Part shown: positions 5,433 to 49,666 of the stretch, one piece after another
Layout of the letters: each line of letters begins with the position of its first letter
Position numbering within the stretch: the stretch's first letter is position 1
The notes under the pieces: model-generated
The model's input: only the letters and a program-made list of their open reading frames with translations
Databases searched by the model: none
What the model was told of the DNA's origin: nothing
Position numbers and translations under genes: made by a program
Assembly (NCBI GenBank): GCA_026418295.1
Contig: JAOABP010000002.1
Span: forward strand, 26,244 to 90,243
Reading direction: 5' to 3'
From: a candidate division WOR-3 bacterium
GTDB taxonomy: Bacteria > Hydrothermota > Tepidihabitantia > Tepidihabitantales > Tepidihabitantaceae
DNA length: 64,000 nucleotides

Positions 5433-6755
5433 ATGGCAATAAATACCAGAAGTTCAGTCCGGATAAAACCGACATATAAGCAGACTGCTCCGGAGAAGAA
5501 ACGTCGCAGTGTATATGAAGATGTTGTAAGTCAGTTCAATCGTGCGGCAGATATCATGAATCTTGATTCCGGAGTTCGGAAAATACTGGGTACAACTATG
5601 AACGAAGTGGTCGTCCATTTTCCCGTGAAGATGGATGACGGGCGGATTGAAGTTTTCACCGGGTACCGGGTTCAGCACAACAACGCCCTTGGTCCGTTCA
5701 AGGGCGGATTGAGATACCATCCGGCGGTGGATATCGATGAGGTGCGGGCGCTGGCAACCTGGATGACTTGGAAGTCAGCAATTGTCAACATTCCATTCGG
5801 TGGCGCAAAAGGGGGAATCCAGCTGGACCCGACAAATTATTCTGTTGCCGAACTGGAACGGATTACCCGGCGATTCACATATGCGCTAGGCAATACGATT
5901 GGGCCTGATTACGACATACCTGCACCAGATGTCAACACCAATCCTCAAATCATGGCGTGGATTCTTGATACCTATCAGTCGATGATGCCCGCTTTTGAGC
6001 GTCACCGCTGTCTGGGGGTAGTTACTGGTAAGCCGATTGAATCCGGTGGCAGTGTCGGCCGGGACAAAGCGACGGGTCAGGGTGTGGTTTATCTGATTCA
6101 TGAGTGGGCAAAGGATCACAACTTTGACCTCAGCAAGGCAACCTACATCGTTCAGGGGTTTGGCAATGTTGGGTCCTGGTCAGCCCGGTTGATGAAGCCT
6201 CTGGGGGCAAAGTTGATTGCGGTTGAGGATGTTACCGGTGCGATCGCCGATCCGGAGGGAATTGATCCGGAAGATTTAACCCGTTATGTGCTGGAAAACC
6301 GCGGGGTCAAGGGATATCCCAAGGCAAAGCCGATATCTCATATTGAGTTTCTCCGCACGCGGGCTGATATCTTCATTCCTGCAGCTTTGGAGAATCAGAT
6401 TACGGCGGAAACTGCACCACTGCTCAATGTTCGTCTAGTTGCGGAAGGTGCCAACGGACCGACTGATCCGGAGGGGGATGCTATTCTCAATCAGCGGGGT
6501 ATTGATGTGCTTCCCGATATCCTCTGTAACTCCGGTGGTGTGATTGTCAGTTACTTTGAGTGGTTGCAGAATAAGCGGAGCGAATTCTGGGATCTTCAGG
6601 AGGTTGACTGCAAGCTGTACAAGAAGATTGTGGGCGGTTATCAGCGGGTCAAGGAGGCGGTGAGCAAGTACCGCGTTAACTGGCGGACAGCAGCGTATAT
6701 CGTTGCTCTGGCACGACTGGAGAAGGTGTACAAGGAAAGGGGTATTTTCCCGTAA
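5433..6755 (+). CDS. gdh: glutamate dehydrogenase, short (about 420-440 aa) Glu/Leu/Phe/Val dehydrogenase-family type
   Basis: GPFKGGLRYHP, PFGGAKGG, GNVGSW Rossmann, VAEGANGP motifs. N-terminal roughly 25-aa basic extension. Confidence 0.9.
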   Translation: MAINTRSSVRIKPTYKQTAPEKKRRSVYEDVVSQFNRAADIMNLDSGVRKILGTTMNEVVVHFPVKMDDGRIEVFTGYRVQHNNALGPFKGGLRYHPAVDIDEVRALATWMTWKSAIVNIPFGGAKGGIQLDPTNYSVAELERITRRFTYALGNTIGPDYDIPAPDVNTNPQIMAWILDTYQSMMPAFERHRCLGVVTGKPIESGGSVGRDKATGQGVVYLIHEWAKDHNFDLSKATYIVQGFGNVGSWSARLMKPLGAKLIAVEDVTGAIADPEGIDPEDLTRYVLENRGVKGYPKAKPISHIEFLRTRADIFIPAALENQITAETAPLLNVRLVAEGANGPTDPEGDAILNQRGIDVLPDILCNSGGVIVSYFEWLQNKRSEFWDLQEVDCKLYKKIVGGYQRVKEAVSKYRVNWRTAAYIVALARLEKVYKERGIFP

Positions 6756-6782
6756 TATCCTTTTCCGGCATCAGTACAGGAA

Positions 6783-6817
6783 GCGGTGCGTCCGGAATCC
6801 GGACGCACCGCTTTTTG
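6783..6817 (+). terminator. rho-independent terminator (13-bp stem GCGGTGCGTCCGG/CCGGACGCACCGC + TTTTTG)
   Basis: Perfect inverted repeat at 6783-6795 / 6799-6811 followed by a T-tract, immediately after the GDH stop. Confidence 0.8.
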
Positions 6818-8352: not shown

Positions 8353-8380
8353 AAAAGGCGGGTCAAATGACCCGCCTTGT
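8351..8380. terminator. bidirectional rho-independent terminator (GGCGGGTCA-AAT-TGACCCGCC flanked by A-run/T-run)
   Basis: 9-bp perfect stem at 8357-8365 / 8369-8377, between convergent genes. Confidence 0.8.
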
Positions 8381-23343: not shown

Positions 23344-23910
23344 TTGAAACACTGGGCGATCATTTCGGTCTGGGACAAGAGCGGTCTGAAGGAACTGGCA
23401 GCGGCGCTGACTGAAGCAGGTCTGGGGATTCTGTCAACCGCGCGGACCGCAGCGGTGCTGCGGGATGCCGGTATTCCGGTTACCGAGATCGCCGAGTGGA
23501 CCGGTGCACCGGAGATCCTGGGAGGCAGGGTCAAGACGCTCCATCCGAAGGTGGCGGCGGGAATTCTCTGCCGGCGCACTGAACCCGGCATCGAGCCGGT
23601 GGATGTGGTGGTGTGCAATCTGTATCCGTTTGCTGAAGGTCTGCGTCAGGGGCTGAAGGTTGAGGAGATGGTGGAGCTGATTGACATTGGCGGGGTGACA
23701 CTCCTGCGTGCCGCAGCCAAGAACTGGGAGTTTGTGACTCCGGTGCCGGCACCGGAATATTATCCGCTGGTGATCGAGGAGCTGAGACAGAACCGGCAGG
23801 TGCGGCGCCAGGTGCGGCTGGAGCTGGCAGGTGCAGCGTTTGAGTTGACAAGTGAGTATGACCGGCTGATCGCCGGCTATCTTAAGCAATTGTTGACAGA
23901 CTGCCGGTAA
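23344..23910 (+). CDS. stand-alone IMP cyclohydrolase (MGS-like) domain protein, PurH N-terminal-domain homolog
   Basis: ALISVWDKSGL…LSTARTAAVLRDAGIPVTEIAEWTGAPEILGGRVKTLHPKV aligns with the PurH IMPCH domain. Only 188 aa; no AICAR transformylase domain follows. Confidence 0.75.
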   Translation: MKHWAIISVWDKSGLKELAAALTEAGLGILSTARTAAVLRDAGIPVTEIAEWTGAPEILGGRVKTLHPKVAAGILCRRTEPGIEPVDVVVCNLYPFAEGLRQGLKVEEMVELIDIGGVTLLRAAAKNWEFVTPVPAPEYYPLVIEELRQNRQVRRQVRLELAGAAFELTSEYDRLIAGYLKQLLTDCR

Positions 23911-23922
23911 ATTTAGTATAAT
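23893..23922 (+). promoter_or_regulatory. consensus sigma-70 promoter TTGACA-18nt-TATAAT for the ribosomal alpha operon
   Basis: TTGACA 23893-23898 (inside the 3' end of the upstream CDS) and TATAAT 23917-23922. RBS AGGAGGA precedes the rpsM GTG at 23983. Confidence 0.6.
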
Positions 23923-43147: not shown

Positions 43148-44005
43148 TTGGATAATAAAAAGGTTGGTGTGATTGGTGCCGGAACAATGGGGTCCGGCAT
43201 TGCCCAGGTTTTTGCTCAGAACGGTTACGAGGTGATTCTGGTGGATGTGGAACAGCGGCTGATTGATAATGGACTGGCAGCGATTAAAAAATTCCTGGAC
43301 AAACTGGTGGAAAAGGGAAAGATTGATTCCCAGAGCGCACAGGAGACCATAAGGCGCATTACTCCGAATCTGGATCTGGCGGCATGCTCGGACTGCGGAC
43401 TGGTGGTTGAAGCGGTTACCGAGAATGTGGCGGTGAAGAAAGATATCTTTGCCCGGCTGGATAAACTCTGCAGTCCGGATTCGATTCTAGCAACGAATAC
43501 TTCCACCATTTCGGTCACCCTGCTGGGGGCAGCAACCAGAAGACCGGAGAAAGTAGCAGGAATGCATTTTATGAACCCGGTGCCACTGATGCCGCTGGTG
43601 GAGGTGGTGCGGGGTCTTGCGACTGCAGATGCGGTTATTGAGGAAATTGTTGCCCGGTCCAAGGAACTGGGGAAGACACCGGTGGTGGTTAACGATTCGC
43701 CCGGTTTTGTCTCCAACCGGGTGCTGATGCCGATGATTAATGAGGCAATTTTCTGTCTGGAGACTGGGGTAGCGGACCGGGAGGCGATCGACACAGTGAT
43801 GAAACTGGGGATGAATCATCCGATGGGTCCGCTGGCGCTGGCAGATCTGATCGGTCTGGATGTGGTGCTGGCGATTCTGGAGGTGCTGTATCAGGACCTG
43901 GGGGACCCGAAATACCGTCCCTGTCCGCTGCTGCGCCGGATGGTGGCTGCCGGCTATCTGGGACGCAAGACCGGCAGAGGGTTTTATGATTATTCCCGGA
44001 AATAG
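43148..44005 (+). CDS. hbd: 3-hydroxybutyryl-CoA dehydrogenase
   Basis: [29 protein letters not shown]-terminal 3HCDH domain. Likely TTG start after AAAAGGAGG. Confidence 0.88.
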
Positions 44006-44025
44006 CCGTTCCTGTTAGGTAGACA

Positions 44026-45396
44026 GTGGCAACCGTTCCCGCAAGGAAAATCCTGACCGTTTCTCAGGTAAATGCACTCGTTGCCGGGATGCTTGATGAG
44101 TATTTTTCCGATCTCTGGATTACCGGCGAGGTCTCAAATCTGAACTATCATTCCAGCGGGCATATCTATTTTAAACTGAAGGATGAGGGGGCACAGATTG
44201 ATGCCGCCTGCTTCAGGAGTTCAGCTCAGAAGCTGAAATTCCGGCTTGAGGACGGGATGCAGGTTGTTGCCCATGGCCGGCTGGAAATTTATGTTCCATC
44301 AGGCAGATACCAGATTATTCTTGATACGATTGAACCCCGGGGTATTGGTGCGCTCCAGCAGGCGTTTGAACAGCTCAAGCGGAAACTGGAAAAGGAAGGG
44401 CTGTTTGACCCCGAACGCAAACGTCCTCTGCCCAAACTGCCGCGGGTGATCGGGATTATCACTTCCCCTTCCGGTGCGGCGATCCGGGATATGCTCAAGA
44501 CGCTGCGTCTGCACCGGGCGCACTGCCGCGTCCTTCTTTATCCGGTCCAGGTTCAAGGGGAGGGTGCTGCCGAACAGATTGCGCGCGCCCTTGCCGGGCT
44601 CAACCGGCGGGATGATGTGGAGGTAATAATTCTGGGCCGGGGTGGCGGTTCAATTGAGGACCTCTGGCCCTTTAATGAGGAAATTGTCGCCCGGGCGATC
44701 GCTGCCTCGCGAATTCCGGTGGTTACCGGTATTGGCCATGAAGTAGACTACACGATTGCGGACTTTGTTGCCGATTACCGGGCAGCAACTCCGACCGCCG
44801 CTGCTCAGAAAGTGGCACAGGGCTGGCAGGAGCTGGAGCAGCGGTTTGAACAGACAGAAAAGGAACTGGTAATGACTATTCAGGATCTGCTGTTTCATCT
44901 TGAGCAGCGGATTGACGAACTCAGCCGGCACCGGGCATTTGAGCAGGTGGTGCGCCGGGTCCGGGAGTTTCATCATCATGCCGAGATCCTGCAGGCGGAG
45001 ATGAGAGACGTCTTCCGCCGGCTGATCAGTGTTCGGAATGAAACCCTCAACCGGCTGAGGGAACGGCTCAGTCATCAGAATCCGGCAGTGAAAATCCGGC
45101 AGGGCATGATTCAGCTGAACGGACTGAAGACCGGATTGCAGCAGGCGATTACCGGCACCGTCACAGGTTTGAGCACCCGGCTGGCGCGTCTTGCCGGCGC
45201 ACTTGACGCTTTGAGTCCGCTTGCCATTCTCGCACGGGGCTATGCGTTGTGTTTCAGCGCGGATGGGACATTAATCAAGAAGATTAATCAGGTGGAACCT
45301 GGAGAAGAGATGCTGGTCCTGCTCAGTGACGGCAGGTTGAAGTGCGGGGTGCAGGAAAAAATCCCGGGAGGAGAAAATGGGAAACAAGAACAGTGA
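44026..45396 (+). CDS. xseA: exodeoxyribonuclease VII large subunit
   Basis: OB-fold N-terminus LTVSQVNALVAGML…WITGEVSNLNYHSSGHIYFKLKD, then catalytic and coiled-coil regions. Confidence 0.92.
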   Translation: MATVPARKILTVSQVNALVAGMLDEYFSDLWITGEVSNLNYHSSGHIYFKLKDEGAQIDAACFRSSAQKLKFRLEDGMQVVAHGRLEIYVPSGRYQIILDTIEPRGIGALQQAFEQLKRKLEKEGLFDPERKRPLPKLPRVIGIITSPSGAAIRDMLKTLRLHRAHCRVLLYPVQVQGEGAAEQIARALAGLNRRDDVEVIILGRGGGSIEDLWPFNEEIVARAIAASRIPVVTGIGHEVDYTIADFVADYRAATPTAAAQKVAQGWQELEQRFEQTEKELVMTIQDLLFHLEQRIDELSRHRAFEQVVRRVREFHHHAEILQAEMRDVFRRLISVRNETLNRLRERLSHQNPAVKIRQGMIQLNGLKTGLQQAITGTVTGLSTRLARLAGALDALSPLAILARGYALCFSADGTLIKKINQVEPGEEMLVLLSDGRLKCGVQEKIPGGENGKQEQ

Positions 45397-45625
45397 GGAA
45401 AAAATTGATTTTGAGCAGGCGCTTGCCGAGCTGGAGAAGATAGTCAAGCAACTGGAGAATGGCAGTCTGCCGCTTGAGCAGTCGCTGGCGCTGTTTGAAC
45501 GCGGGGTGAAGCTGGCGCGGCAGTGTCGGGAAAAACTGCAGGCGGCAGAGCTCAAGATTAATAAGCTGATTGAGGAACGGGAAGGGGAGCTGAACGAGGA
45601 GCCATTTTCCGAAGAACCGGATTAG
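45377..45625 (+). CDS. xseB: exodeoxyribonuclease VII small subunit
   Basis: FEQALAELEKIVKQLENGSLPLEQSLALFERGVKLARQCREKL. Confidence 0.92.
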   Translation: MGNKNSEEKIDFEQALAELEKIVKQLENGSLPLEQSLALFERGVKLARQCREKLQAAELKINKLIEEREGELNEEPFSEEPD

Positions 45626-45789
45626 AACTCGCTCATATCGTAGCCCAGAATCTTGGATTTCTTGAACTCGGCAACCTTGTTGCCCTTGTCATCATAGAGG
45701 ACATAATTCTCGCCCTCTTCCACAATCTTTTCGGCGATGATGTTCACACGAAAAACAGGATTGGAATCCAGATAGATGTGAAAGGTCAT
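45622..45789 (-). CDS. unannotated small ORF (55 aa) MTFHIYLDSNPVFRVNIIAEKIVEEGENYVLYDDKGNKVAEFKKSKILGYDMSEF
   Basis: Below the 60-aa cutoff of the supplied track; found by manual reverse-strand translation. ATG start; stop overlaps the xseB stop convergently by 4 nt. Confidence 0.35.
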   Translation of the reverse strand: MTFHIYLDSNPVFRVNIIAEKIVEEGENYVLYDDKGNKVAEFKKSKILGYDMSEF

Positions 45790-46309
45790 AAACCAGCCCC
45801 TTTCTTTTTTGTATGAGCATACCTTTTCACAGGCTGGCTGTCAACAACGTCCCCTTAGCCAAAATTCCTATTTACCGGTCCGGTTATTCCAAAGCATTCC
45901 GGATGGAGAGCGGTAATGGGGGAAAGCCGCGGGGAAACCTGATGGAGAGAGGAGCCATGTCATCGAACGGCAGTCCGGACTCAGTAATAAACTTGAGTGT
46001 GACTCCGGACTGCCAATGGTGATTTGTGGCGGGTCATATGACCCAGGTCGGTGAAAAAGCCAGCCTTTTAATTACTCCGGATGAACCCCCAATATGCCAG
46101 TTTGTGCATTGGTATTATATAATTGCAATAAATTCATATAGATAAATTTAATTGTTACAATATTTATATGTGCAGATTTGTACACATATTCCGTTCCTGA
46201 GTCAGTTCAGATTTTCCGTTTGCAGGAGATATTTGGCGATTGCAGGACAAGTTATTGTGTATTTGGTTCTGGCTGATGGGTGAACACTATTCCAGCCTTG
46301 AATTTTCGT

Positions 46310-46338
46310 TTGACAAAATGCATACCTGAGTGTATAAT
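46310..46338 (+). promoter_or_regulatory. near-perfect sigma-70 promoter TTGACA-17nt-TGtTATAAT (extended -10)
   Basis: TTGACA 46310-46315 and TATAAT 46333-46338. RBS AGGGAGGGAG, then ATG at 46387. Confidence 0.6.
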
Positions 46339-46386
46339 TATATATATAGGGAAGGAATTCCTGTTTAGGAAGGGAGGGAGCTAGTT

Positions 46387-47136
46387 ATGGAGGATATTAG
46401 AAAACTGATTCAAAATCTGCGGGATAAAAACCCGTGTGTACGTAGCGGCGCAGCGTGGGCGCTGGGCGCGACGAAGGACAGTTGTGCGGTTGAACCGCTG
46501 ATTGAGGCGCTCAAGGATGCTCACTGGGATGTGCGGCGCGGTGCAGCGATGGCGTTGGGGATGCTTAAGGATGCGCGGGCGGTCGATGCCCTGATTGCTG
46601 CTTTGAAGGATGAGGACTGGGATGTGCGCTGGAGTGCGGCATGGGCACTGGGTGCGATCAAGGATGCCCGTGCGGTTGAACCGCTGATTGAGGCGCTTAA
46701 GGATGAGCATGCCTGGGTACGCTGTTATGCAGCTGAGGCGCTGGGAAAGATCGGTGATGCGCGGGCGGTGGATGCGCTGATTAACGCACTGCAGGATGAA
46801 GATGCTGCAGTCCGGCGGAGTGCTGCGTGGGCACTTGGATCGCTTAAGGATATCCGGGCGGTAGAGTCACTGATTGGAGTCCTGCGGGATGAGGATCCGG
46901 ATGCCCGGGAGCGGGCGGCGTGGGCGCTGGTGAAACTCGGTTCACGGATTGTTGAGATGCTGATGACCGCAATGCGGCACAGTGATCCGACGGTGCGTCA
47001 GAGCGCTGCCTATGTACTGCGGGCGGTAAAGGACGCCAATTCCTTTGAATCGTTGATGAGTGCACTGCGGGATAACGATTCTGAACTCCGCGACCGGATC
47101 GCTGAGGCGCTGAATGCCATTGCCCAGATCAGGTAG
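46387..47136 (+). CDS. HEAT (PBS-lyase-type) repeat protein
   Basis: Seven or more tandem roughly 31-aa repeats of the form [33 protein letters not shown]. Confidence 0.85.
46423..46990 (+). repeat. in-frame tandem 93-bp DNA repeats (HEAT repeat units)
   Basis: Recurrent GATGCGCGGGCGGT(C/G)GATGC(C/G)CTGATT…AAGGATGAGGACTGGGATGTGCG blocks with 93-nt periodicity. Confidence 0.7.
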
Positions 47137-47211
47137 CAGTTTCCGGATTCGAGTGAAGATATTGCTAAGATAAGCTGAGTGAGCCGGAGGAAGGTCCGGG
47201 AGCGAACCGGG

Positions 47212-48036
47212 TCACTCTTTAAGTCCGGCACGTGCCTGAGACTGGATGATCTGTTTCTGGGCGATAAAGAAAAGGATAACGAGCGGAATGATGGAGAGTG
47301 TAGTCGCTGCCATCAACAGGGTATAGTTAGTGGACTGCTCACGGGAGAAGTATGCCAGTCCCACCTGCAGGGGACGGATGTGATCGGAGTTGGTAACGAT
47401 CAGGGGCCAGAAGAAGGAATTCCAGCTGGAGATGACATTGAAGACGATGATCGTGGCAATTGGCGCCCGACACAACGGGATGACAATCCGGAGGAGAGTT
47501 TGAAGGGTGGAAAGGCCGTCAATTCTGGCGGCGTCAAACAGGTCCTGTGGCAGCTGACGGATGTGCTGGCGCAGGAGAAAAATGGAGAAGATATTGACAA
47601 TCCAGGGCACGATCATTGCCGCATAGGTGTCAATCCAGCCGAGCCGGTAGAGGATCATATAAGAGGGGACAAGGTAGACCGGCAGCGGAATCATCATCAG
47701 GGCGAGCAGGAGCATAAACAGGACTTCCCGCCCCGGAAAACGGAGCCGGGCGAAGGCGTAGGCTGCCGGGATGCCGGTGAAGAGGATGCCCGCAACCGAC
47801 AGCAGGGTGATGAGCACAGTGTTGCCCAGATAGCGCCACAGTGGAATCTGGCGGAATACCTCGAGATAGTTACTGAACTGCCACTTTGCCGGTATCCAGG
47901 TAGGCGGAAAGAGCAACGCCTCAAGCGGGGTCTTGAGTGAGGTGACGACCATCCAGTAAAAGGGCAGGAGCATAGAGACACTGCCCATAATCAGCAGGAG
48001 ATGGACCGGCAGGTTGCGGACGGTTCTTTTAGCCAT
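47212..48036 (-). CDS. carbohydrate ABC transporter permease (MalG/UgpE-like)
   Basis: Six TM helices. EAA-loop region DAARIDGLSTLQTLLRIVIPL. Confidence 0.85.
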   Translation of the reverse strand: MAKRTVRNLPVHLLLIMGSVSMLLPFYWMVVTSLKTPLEALLFPPTWIPAKWQFSNYLEVFRQIPLWRYLGNTVLITLLSVAGILFTGIPAAYAFARLRFPGREVLFMLLLALMMIPLPVYLVPSYMILYRLGWIDTYAAMIVPWIVNIFSIFLLRQHIRQLPQDLFDAARIDGLSTLQTLLRIVIPLCRAPIATIIVFNVISSWNSFFWPLIVTNSDHIRPLQVGLAYFSREQSTNYTLLMAATTLSIIPLVILFFIAQKQIIQSQARAGLKE

Positions 48037-48982
48037 AATGCACCTTTTTCTCCAGAACCAGCCGCTGGAGGATGGTCAGGCAAAGGATAATGAGGAAGGC
48101 AATAAAGGCAATTGCAGCACCGTAACCGAGGCGCCAGAGTTCAAAGGCATTCTCATAGAAATAATACATCACCACTTTGGTAGTGCCCAGTGGTCCGCCC
48201 GGCGGTGGTCCGGTCATAATCCAGACTTGGGCGAAGGTCTCAAAGGCGGCAATTGAGCTCATAATCAGAACATAGTAGGTCGTCGGTGAGAGCAGAGGCC
48301 AGGTGATTTTCCAGAAGGTTTTAAACCGGGATGCGCCGTCAATCCTTGCCGCCTCATAATAGGTCTTAGGAATGTTCTGCAGACCGGCAAGGAAGAGGAC
48401 GATGTTGTAGCCGAGCGCCTTCCAGATGCCCATCAGGACAAGCGAGATCAGGGCAATTGACGGACCGCGCAGGGCATAAGGAAGATTGTTGCCGTGACTG
48501 CCCAGAATCAGCTGGAAGATACCCCGCGGGTCCTGAAGCCAGCGGATACCGGTGATGTCAGCGAGGGAAAGAAAGTAATTGAAGACGCCACGTTCCGGAT
48601 GAAGGAGCCATTTCCAGACAACAGATACAGCAACAATGGAGGTGACCACCGGCAAGTAATAGATGGTCCGGTAGACACTCAAGCCGCGGATGCGCTGATT
48701 GAGCAGCAGGGCGATAAAGAGGGAGAAAAATATTGTTACCGGGACTTCAAAAATGATATACCAGCCGGTGTTCAGGAGTGATTTGTAAAACATCGGGTCT
48801 TTGAGGACTTCAAGATAATTTCCCAGGCCGACAAAGGAACGGGGACCAGCCATACCCCAGTCATACAGACTCATCCGGACTGACAGCAGAATCGGAATTA
48901 TGCGAAAGGCGATGAGAATGAGGAGTGCCGGCAGGAGCAACAGAATGGCATTAATTGCTTCACGGACAGGTCGGGATGGCAT
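48029..48982 (-). CDS. carbohydrate ABC transporter permease (MalF/UgpA-like)
   Basis: EAARIDGASRFKTFWKITWPLL EAA motif. Multi-TM. 8-nt overlap with the downstream permease. Confidence 0.85.
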   Translation of the reverse strand: MPSRPVREAINAILLLLPALLILIAFRIIPILLSVRMSLYDWGMAGPRSFVGLGNYLEVLKDPMFYKSLLNTGWYIIFEVPVTIFFSLFIALLLNQRIRGLSVYRTIYYLPVVTSIVAVSVVWKWLLHPERGVFNYFLSLADITGIRWLQDPRGIFQLILGSHGNNLPYALRGPSIALISLVLMGIWKALGYNIVLFLAGLQNIPKTYYEAARIDGASRFKTFWKITWPLLSPTTYYVLIMSSIAAFETFAQVWIMTGPPPGGPLGTTKVVMYYFYENAFELWRLGYGAAIAFIAFLIILCLTILQRLVLEKKVHYG

Positions 48983-49090
48983 TTTTTACCTATTATAAAC
49001 AGTGCACCGGATGAGTCAAATCCACCTCAAAAGCCAGATTTGACTGCAAGCCAGCCGGGCATAATCTATATCTTATCCAGGAGGAACACG

Positions 49091-49666
49091 ATGAGCAGGA
49101 AACTGATACCCGTAATAATATTGAGTGTCATTTTACTAACCGGCTGTGGAGGACCGAAGTCAACTACCTCCAGTCAGCAGAGTGTATCTGTGACTGAAGA
49201 TAGCCCGGTGCTTGTAATCACCAGTCCTTATTTTGCTGATAGAGAGACGATTCCCAGGAAGTTTACCGGCGATGGCGAGGATGTATCGCCCGAACTGCGC
49301 TGGGATAATGTGCCTTCCGGAACCAGAAGTTTTGCATTAATCTGTTCTGACCCGGATGCGCCGCTGGGCACATTCATTCACTGGGTGATTTATGACCTGC
49401 CCGCAGATGTCCGGCACCTGCCTGAGGGAATGCCGAAAACGGGTGTGCTGGATAATGGCGCCCGGCAGGGGGTTAACGGGTTCAGACAACTGGGGTATAA
49501 CGGACCCAAACCGCCACCCGGCAGGCCGCACCGGTATATTTTCCGGCTTTACGCACTGGATACCATTTTCGGTGCCGAACCGGGAATATCTGCCGGCAGA
49601 CTTGCCGGAATGATGGAGAATCATATTCTTGCAACTGCCGAATTGACAGGAATTTATGGAAAGTAG
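49091..49666 (+). CDS. YbhB/YbcL-family phosphatidylethanolamine-binding protein (PEBP), lipoprotein
   Basis: Signal peptide IILSVILLTGCGG. DPDAP…HW, GYNGPKPPPGRPHRY, FRLYALD PEBP motifs. Confidence 0.85.
   Translation: MSRKLIPVIILSVILLTGCGGPKSTTSSQQSVSVTEDSPVLVITSPYFADRETIPRKFTGDGEDVSPELRWDNVPSGTRSFALICSDPDAPLGTFIHWVIYDLPADVRHLPEGMPKTGVLDNGARQGVNGFRQLGYNGPKPPPGRPHRYIFRLYALDTIFGAEPGISAGRLAGMMENHILATAELTGIYGK

Follow-up and report, generated by a model that had tools for sequence, protein, structure and literature searches.

This analysis concerns the non-coding gap at positions 45790-46386 (597 bp) of a 64-kb window, the window being the whole stretch of DNA that was analysed and the source of all coordinates given below. 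We read the gap as an ordinary divergent promoter region inside a lineage-specific and mostly unconstrained insertion, and put the probability of this reading at roughly 0.7. At its left end, a minus-strand TTGACA-17-TATGCT promoter and a ribosome-binding site (RBS) would drive a conserved 55-aa orphan gene; at its right end, a HEAT-repeat gene would be expressed, presumably at a high level, from a promoter of perfect consensus sequence with a strong RBS. In the middle, an AT-rich block (46127-46189) is likewise constrained and most likely holds an extra extended -10 promoter on the plus strand (TGtTACAAT). Transcription from it is predicted to begin within a short inverted repeat, possibly a 5' stem-loop or an operator. 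The remaining sequence, which includes a 14-bp palindrome, a hairpin holding two copies of TCCGGACT and a cluster of TCCGGA sites, shows near-neutral drift and is most readily seen as remnants of insertion and duplication.

Conserved blocks and predicted promoters at the two ends

Exact matches of its proteins locate the window on several metagenomic contigs. The comparison was based on 28 related loci obtained from contig fetches and scans of two collections, with ten more fetched afterwards. Five clearly distinct haplotypes of one lineage, probably belonging to phylum WOR-3, were compared (the window, L006, L009, L033/L035 and L034), and L038 served as a partial sixth. Footprinting was performed by collecting runs of at least 7 nt that are invariant among the five haplotypes. 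These runs marked the two end promoters, two regions comprising an RBS or untranslated region (UTR), and the AT-rich block, with the sole exception of CAGTTCA (46203-46209), for which we have no interpretation. The runs at 45790-45809 and 45813-45825 cover the UTR of the small open reading frame (ORF) for the 55-aa protein, with its RBS and -10 box, and GGCTGTCAA (45836-45844) covers its -35 box. AATTGTT (46150-46156) and TATTTATATGTGC (46161-46173) lie in the AT-rich block. On the side of the HEAT gene, TTTGACAAAATG (46309-46320), TGTATAAT (46331-46338) and AGGAAGGGAGGGAG (46367-46380) correspond to the -35 box, the -10 box and the RBS. None of the palindromes to which an earlier note on this DNA had drawn attention was invariant among the five haplotypes, save the left arm of a repeat near 46170.

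The predicted promoter and 5' UTR of the 55-aa gene occupy 45790-45844 on the minus strand. The -35 box TTGACA (45844-45839) and the -10 box TATGCT (45821-45816) are spaced by 17 nt and accompanied by the RBS AAAGGGG. This site scored 10/12 and was recovered in the promoter scans of both L006 and L009; transcription is predicted to start near 45809 on the minus strand. The promoter of the HEAT gene (46310-46338, plus strand) is a perfect sigma-70-type consensus, TTGACA-17-TATAAT, scoring 12/12 here and when L006 and L009 were scanned; the aligned sequences of L033, L034 and L035 retain the two hexamers without change. Its start site is predicted near 46345 on the plus strand. The RBS AGGAAGGGAGGGAG and the spacer before the ATG (46387) follow at 46367-46386. 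Perfect TTGACA-N16-18-TATAAT sites number two in the 64 kb, against 0.01 expected, and the site at 46310-46338 is one of them; the other is TTGACA-N18-TATAAT at 23893-23922 on the plus strand. The earlier note had described the promoter at 46310-46338 as a near-ideal one with an extended -10 element. The hexamers and their spacing hold, but the -10 box is preceded by GTG and therefore carries no TGn extension.

Measured against sigma-70-type hexamers and spacing, the three sites of the gap scored 12/12 (46310-46338), 10/12 (45844-45816) and 9/12 with a TG (46133-46161, in the AT-rich block). Their hexamers are conserved above background: they fall in invariant runs, they were found in the scans of L006 and L009, and a position weight matrix (PWM) located them in all haplotypes; the -10 box of the middle site varies (TACAAT, TATAAT or TGTAAT). 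From these patterns we infer promoter activity. The promoters indicate that canonical TTGACA/TATAAT signals are used by this lineage, which helps in annotating start sites in WOR-3 genomes.

The yardstick for neutral divergence was the identity to L006 and L009 at 4-fold degenerate sites. It was 0.83-0.94 for hbd, xseA, xseB and the small ORF, and 0.63-0.78 for the HEAT gene, both permeases and the PEBP gene. Outside the conserved blocks, intergenic identity was mostly 0.55-0.8, i.e. about neutral, and the indels in the gap alignment measured 1, 2, 4, 7, 20 and 22 nt. Divergence rises stepwise across the spacer from left to right (window 43148-49666 compared with L006 and L009), and L033 and L034 are mosaics of other haplotypes; together, these two observations suggest breakpoints of homologous recombination in or beside the spacer.

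One fast-evolving segment, at 45845-46126, has a GC content of about 0.5 and shows no coding signal, Rfam match or covariation. In 30-column windows it is 0.53-0.87 identical to L006 and L009, for the most part close to the 0.63-0.78 that the right-hand genes show at 4-fold sites; its indels are not multiples of three, and most of it cannot be aligned with L013, L016 or L011. Another, at 46190-46300, is the most variable part of the gap, with indels of about 20 nt between haplotypes. The invariant fraction is 0.44-0.52 at its left edge and 0.04-0.32 between about 46224 and 46296, the least conserved stretch. It contains a 20-bp tandem duplication with copies at 46211-46227 and 46231-46247 (ATTTTCCGTTTGCAGGA / ATTTGGCGATTGCAGGA), present in the window and L009 and represented by a single copy in L006, L033 and L034.

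With ORFs of at least 80 aa masked, the gap is the longest non-coding stretch of the window, as the earlier note had it, and the runner-up measures 336 bp. The same note held the gap to be much more AT-rich than its surroundings. This is true of the right half (46091-46386, GC 0.345), to which the AT-richness is confined, but not of the left half (45790-46090), whose GC content is 0.51, compared with a mean of 0.54 over the whole window. Within the right half lie the 200 bp with the lowest GC content in the 64 kb (0.33); AT-rich gaps are not peculiar to 45790-46386, because two further short gaps have GC contents of 0.35-0.37.

The left neighbour of the gap is not xseB, as had been thought. 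The 55-aa ORF (45622-45789, minus strand) intervenes, and its stop codon overlaps that of xseB by 4 nt. This gene is called on all related contigs, always between the permease and xseB, and its product is 76-100% identical in amino acid sequence among relatives. The protein has no match in Pfam or NCBIfam; only four other clusters were found in a database of 5.8 billion proteins, one of them annotated as candidate division WOR-3.

History of the junction and of the HEAT gene

The gene to the right of the gap (46387-47136, plus strand) encodes a 249-aa protein with HEAT/PBS-lyase-like repeats, present only in the clade of the window. It was identified as a HEAT_2/HEAT_PBS repeat protein (HEAT_2 match, E = 1e-92) and scores below every NCBIfam cut-off. 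Related loci were mapped by tblastn with xseB, the small ORF, the HEAT gene and the permease. The HEAT gene was found by tblastn in L001-L010 and L022, and a 249-aa gene is called in L029-L035; it is absent from the locus in L011-L018, L020, L021 and L023-L028.

The size of the junction differs strongly between lineages. In L020, L021 and L025-L028, the permease stop codon and the ATG of the small ORF are 52-59 bp apart on the same strand, and the TTGACA begins 3-5 nt after the permease stop codon; four outgroup lineages (L020, L021, L026 and L028) show this short gap. L011 carries 220 bp of unrelated sequence at this place. The junction measures 405 bp in L012-L015 and 436 bp in L016-L018, L023 and L024, none of which has the HEAT gene. 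In the window clade, it comprises the 597-bp gap, the 750-bp HEAT gene and a further 75 bp. A neighbour-joining tree of the permease, the small ORF and XseB placed the window clade as sister to L013 plus L016, with L011 outside and the short-gap lineages further out. The short outgroup gaps, taken with these tree positions, indicate that the spacer and the HEAT gene are derived. In the ancestor, the small gene would thus have had its -35 box within 3-5 nt after the stop codon of a sugar-type ABC permease, and about 350 bp of spacer as well as the HEAT gene would have been added later at the junction of permease and small gene. Two histories are equally parsimonious on this tree: the HEAT gene may have been gained in the window clade, or it may have arrived with the spacer and then been deleted in the ancestor of L013 and L016. 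One intergenic junction in an uncultivated phylum has expanded here from about 55 bp to 1.4 kb, with the gain of a gene.

The best-placed alternative starts from this gain. The AT-rich stretch could be the edge of a horizontally acquired cassette, as the earlier note had proposed, with the HEAT gene brought from another organism together with its own promoter. Its presence at the locus in the window clade and its absence from seven other related lineages agree with such an event, as does the position of promoter, UTR and gene, all of which lie between the permease stop codon and the ancestral AT-rich block; the consensus promoter is also unusually strong for this genome. However, the GC content at third codon positions of the HEAT gene (0.61) resembles that of its neighbours (0.52-0.72), and no integrase, transposase, transfer RNA (tRNA), flanking direct repeats or clear target-site duplication was found around it. 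The best outside homologues among those listed are only 33-56% identical, come from diverse bacteria and archaea and are mostly longer (most 300-430 aa). No close donor is among them, but because longer proteins dominate the list, a high bit score may be due in part to the number of repeats, which makes this search uninformative. The HEAT protein gave no match in exact-sequence look-ups. Moreover, a loss in the ancestor of L013 and L016 is as parsimonious as a gain in the window clade, and genomes without the HEAT gene have half of the AT-rich stretch in common with the window. The proposal is thus supported in part, by the lineage-specific presence of the gene but by no sign of a foreign origin, and we consider acquisition as a cassette rather unlikely. 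A 22/27 match between window positions 47137-47211 and L013 was only barely over threshold; it rests on CCGGG motifs that appear common in this genome and was taken as chance.

The AT-rich block in the middle of the gap

The block at 46127-46189 (plus strand) matched the promoter pattern both in the scan (9/12 with a TG) and by PWM. The candidate promoter reads TTCATA-17-TGtTACAAT, with the -35 box at 46133-46138, the TG at 46153-46154 and the -10 box at 46156-46161, and would initiate transcription near 46168 on the plus strand. The PWM scan found this plus-strand site conserved in position in all haplotypes. Its -10 box varies: TGtTATAAT occurs in most haplotypes, TGtTAGAAT in L013 and TGtTGTAAT in L009. 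The distance from the -10 box to ATGTGCA is 6 nt in every sequence except L006-L031-L036, which have a 3-nt insertion. This ATGTGCA belongs to the inverted repeat ATATGTGCA/TACACATAT at 46166-46189. The imperfect repeat ATGTGCA-N6-TACACAT that had been reported near 46170 was recovered within it, at 46168-46187 with one mismatch. Among the five haplotypes the left arm of the 46166-46189 repeat is invariant and the right arm is not, and the changes in L006 keep G-U pairs on the plus strand only.

The block extends beyond the window clade. Window positions 46127-46184 are identical to L013, which has no HEAT gene, at 46 of 65 positions, a score reached by none of 500 composition-preserving shuffles. 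L013 and L016 in turn share a 144-nt module with 103 identical positions (0/500 shuffles), and in both the block lies 30-90 nt from the permease stop codon. Identity at 4-fold sites between the window, L013 and L016 lineages is 0.40-0.54, near saturation. From this it follows that the block is constrained.

Several observations weigh against reading the gap as a divergent promoter region in mostly unconstrained DNA. Every start site given here is inferred. The -35 box of the middle site is poor (TTCATA, ATCATA or ATCAAA), whereas the verified-looking promoters of the lineage all have TTGACA, and the L009 version of the -10 box reads TGTAAT, without the key A in second place. The strand of any activity of the block is uncertain, since every haplotype also has, with the same conservation of position, a promoter-like site on the minus strand at about 46121. 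The block persists in L013 and L016, which have no HEAT gene. In these lineages, transcription of the plus strand would yield nothing but an antisense RNA to the 3' end of the permease gene, which implies that a role as a promoter of the HEAT gene cannot explain everything. In the window and L009, the hairpin at 45969-46014, described below, greatly exceeds what chance would give; with two compensatory pairs in its outer stem, it may have a weak or recent structural role. Finally, five haplotypes give little power for detecting covariation.

In view of these points, we describe the AT-rich block as a possible second promoter or a regulatory element, of uncertain strand and target. It could instead give rise to an unannotated small or antisense RNA, whose promoter and 5' end it would contain, or bind a lineage-wide regulator, and so be kept independently of the HEAT gene. 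Features pointing this way are the invariant TATTTATATGTGC and its fixed spacing to the inverted repeat near the start; in L013 and L016, such a transcript would read antisense into the permease. We regard it as unlikely. The persistence of the block without the HEAT gene nevertheless constitutes the residual novelty of this locus.

Palindromes, RNA structure and comparison with known systems

The remaining eye-catching features are inverted repeats. Both copies of TCCGGACT (45974 and 46004) were confirmed, one of them within the perfect 10-bp palindrome AGTCCGGACT at 45972-45981 as previously described, but they are spaced by 30 nt start to start rather than by about 27. They form the arms of one 15-nt inverted repeat (45969-45983 / 46000-46014) that matches at 14 of 15 positions around a 16-nt loop. 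Inverted-repeat search and folding thus identified a strong, strain-specific hairpin at 45969-46014, with an inner CTCAG/TTGAG stem. An inverted repeat of this strength was reached in none of 300 dinucleotide shuffles of the gap and occurs only twice in the 64 kb. The only other short-loop inverted repeat of at least 14/15 in the window is at 6780-6815, about 25 nt downstream of an ORF ending at 6755.

These data bear on the possibility that the gap encodes a small non-coding RNA (ncRNA), one of the options in the earlier note. Such an RNA could be centred on the 76-nt hairpin at 45955-46030, or extend from about 46168 to about 46308 (some 140 nt, with a hairpin and a U-rich tract before the HEAT promoter). 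For the first, the folding z score was -6.3 in the window and -3.5 in L009, and two pairs of the outer helix are changed on both sides. But the z score was +0.5 in L006, the arms are broken without compensation in L006 and L033, and the hairpin is lost in L006 and L033/L035. Across the haplotypes, 79.3% of the cells of the 76-nt hairpin are paired, compared with 78.2% in shuffles. In helix 2, where the TCCGGACT arms pair with each other, four pairs are broken and none is compensatory, and the double changes in the outer helix are not above shuffles (160/500). The hairpin is therefore genuine in this strain and not maintained in relatives. The covariation term of RNAalifold for 45845-46100 was about zero (+1.0 kcal/mol on one strand, -0.4 kcal/mol on the other), a comparison of 3-5 haplotypes with limited power, and the 311-nt left half gave a folding z score of -1.8 on each strand. 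A long-range pairing of 45826-45839 with 46058-46071, seen in minimum free energy folds, was rejected since the two segments are not complementary in L006 or L009.

For the second candidate, the plus-strand-only retention of G-U pairs in the 46166-46189 repeat and the conservation of the AT-rich block without the HEAT gene are favourable, and all three folds of 46168-46310 contain a hairpin that ends in CCAGCC and precedes UUGAAUUUU. Against this, the z scores of the putative 46168-46310 transcript were only -1.1 to -1.4, its folds differ between haplotypes, and it runs through the least conserved part of the gap (46224-46296), with indels of 20 nt. As a terminator before the HEAT promoter, the GGCTG/CAGCC stem was rejected: it gains uncompensated mismatches in L006, L033 and L034. 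No canonical terminator was found, with no terminator-like site on either strand of 45300-46700. A terminator for the xseAB or permease operon was likewise rejected, since the flagged hairpins continue into AAUGGUGA and AGGUCGGU on the plus strand, have no U-tracts and are not conserved.

Database searches agreed with this outcome. With the covariance models of Rfam 15, the only hit above the gathering threshold in the whole window was a transfer-messenger RNA (tmRNA) at 1380-1735. Over 45500-46600 the best hits had E = 6.7 at 15-17 bits, and none in the gap at E <= 10 was considered relevant; in the loci of L013, L016, L011, L033 and L034, the sole hit with E <= 1 lay outside the spacer. ARAGORN found no tRNA. 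The Rfam families, which include riboswitches, leaders, small RNAs, 6S RNA, RNase P, signal recognition particle RNA, tRNA and tmRNA, thus offer no counterpart to the gap; a structured ncRNA is not supported, and a small ncRNA seems quite unlikely. The tmRNA gene itself (plus strand) scored 181 bits with Rfam, and ARAGORN predicted the tag peptide ANSSYALAA.

Another suggestion of the earlier note, a multi-operator regulatory region, has its own points in favour. The palindromes would then be operators bound by dimeric proteins, of one kind or several, that control the two divergent genes. Symmetric double substitutions keep two 10-bp palindromes perfect, turning AGTCCGGACT into ATTCCGGAAT (45972-45981) and AGGAATTCCT into AGAAATTTCT (46353-46362), the latter spanning roughly +8 to +17 relative to the HEAT promoter. 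The invariant left arm of the 46166-46189 repeat overlaps a predicted start site, and TCCGGA is locally enriched, with four sites in 196 bp (Poisson P ~2e-4 for the excess, despite 89 sites per 64 kb). However, among the 6-7 haplotypes that cover these two palindromes, 2-3 have them broken, and both TCCGGA cores are mutated in L033 and L035. The perfect 14-bp palindrome GGGTCATATGACCC was found at 46031-46044 as reported, in this haplotype only; the other haplotypes have AGGTCGCATGAACC, AGGTCGTATGATCC or AGGTCGTATAACCC, degenerate in each. On its own it is unremarkable, as the window contains seven perfect palindromes of at least 14 bp against about 3.5 expected. Searches of the 64 kb with TATATGTRCA, TGTRCA-N4-TGYRNA and GGTCATATGACC gave hits at chance level, the extra ones lying in an RsfS-like coding region or in a terminator, and the gene tables show no adjacent transcription-factor gene. 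With the flagged palindromes neither conserved, apart from that left arm, nor repeated above chance in the window, a multi-operator region is very unlikely.

Some further observations concern the same motifs. CCGG occurs 1030 times per 64 kb, about three times the mononucleotide expectation, and many perfect palindromes contain it. The sequence AAAAAGGCGGGTCAAATGACCCGCCTT at 8353-8379, between convergent ORFs, looks like a bidirectional terminator, and the stem of its hairpin (8357-8376) shares 16 of 17 nt with 46028-46044. A GC-rich hairpin (CCCGGG..CCCGGG) followed by CATRCCCC is common to L006, L009, L033, L034, L013 (3596-4000) and L016 (3565-4000), and is lost in the window haplotype, where 46074-46100 reads CCGGATGAACCCCC.

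Other explanations found no support. A hidden protein gene is contradicted by its candidates, a 69-aa plus-strand ORF and an 81-aa ORF of L009, which have no Pfam match, are not kept in relatives and are broken in frame by indels, the ATG at 45958 reading GTA or ATA in relatives; for a replication origin, no DnaA box (with at most one mismatch) was found in the gap and no switch in GC skew, the cumulative skew being monotonic across the window; and for a repeat element, no second copy of the spacer was found in the 64-kb window or in the fetched loci and flanks.

The locus is of limited importance outside this lineage. It does offer a clean example of how a few metagenomic haplotypes can separate real signals, such as promoters and RBSs, from eye-catching palindromes.

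The gap resembles several known kinds of non-coding DNA to different degrees. Like intrinsic terminators and repetitive extragenic palindromic (REP)-like elements, it holds GC-rich perfect or near-perfect inverted repeats, and the 14-bp palindrome lies in the stretch shared with the terminator-like hairpin at 8357-8376. Unlike terminators, neither hairpin is followed by a U-tract on either strand; unlike REP-like elements, the palindromes have no other copies in the 64 kb or the fetched flanks and are not conserved in relatives. The AT-rich block recalls extended -10 (TGn) promoters with a 5' stem-loop, having TGtTACAAT or TGtTATAAT, a weak -35 box and a 9-bp inverted repeat at the predicted +1, although this likeness comes from sequence pattern alone, one haplotype has TGTAAT as its -10 box, and the strand is uncertain.

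With flexible genome islets, the junction shares variable content, holding 52-59 bp, 220 bp, 405-436 bp or 1.4 kb with an extra gene according to lineage, and haplotypes that are recombination mosaics. It differs from them in having no mobility genes, tRNA target, clear target-site duplication or compositional deviation. Compared with divergent sigma-70-type promoter regions, the promoters here are about 490 bp apart instead of overlapping or adjacent, the DNA between them would be a recent insertion, and a third conserved AT-rich block stands in the middle. The plan is otherwise the same: two outward-facing promoters with 17-nt spacers, each with a short UTR and an RBS, form conserved islands in drifting intergenic DNA that is AT-rich around the promoters.

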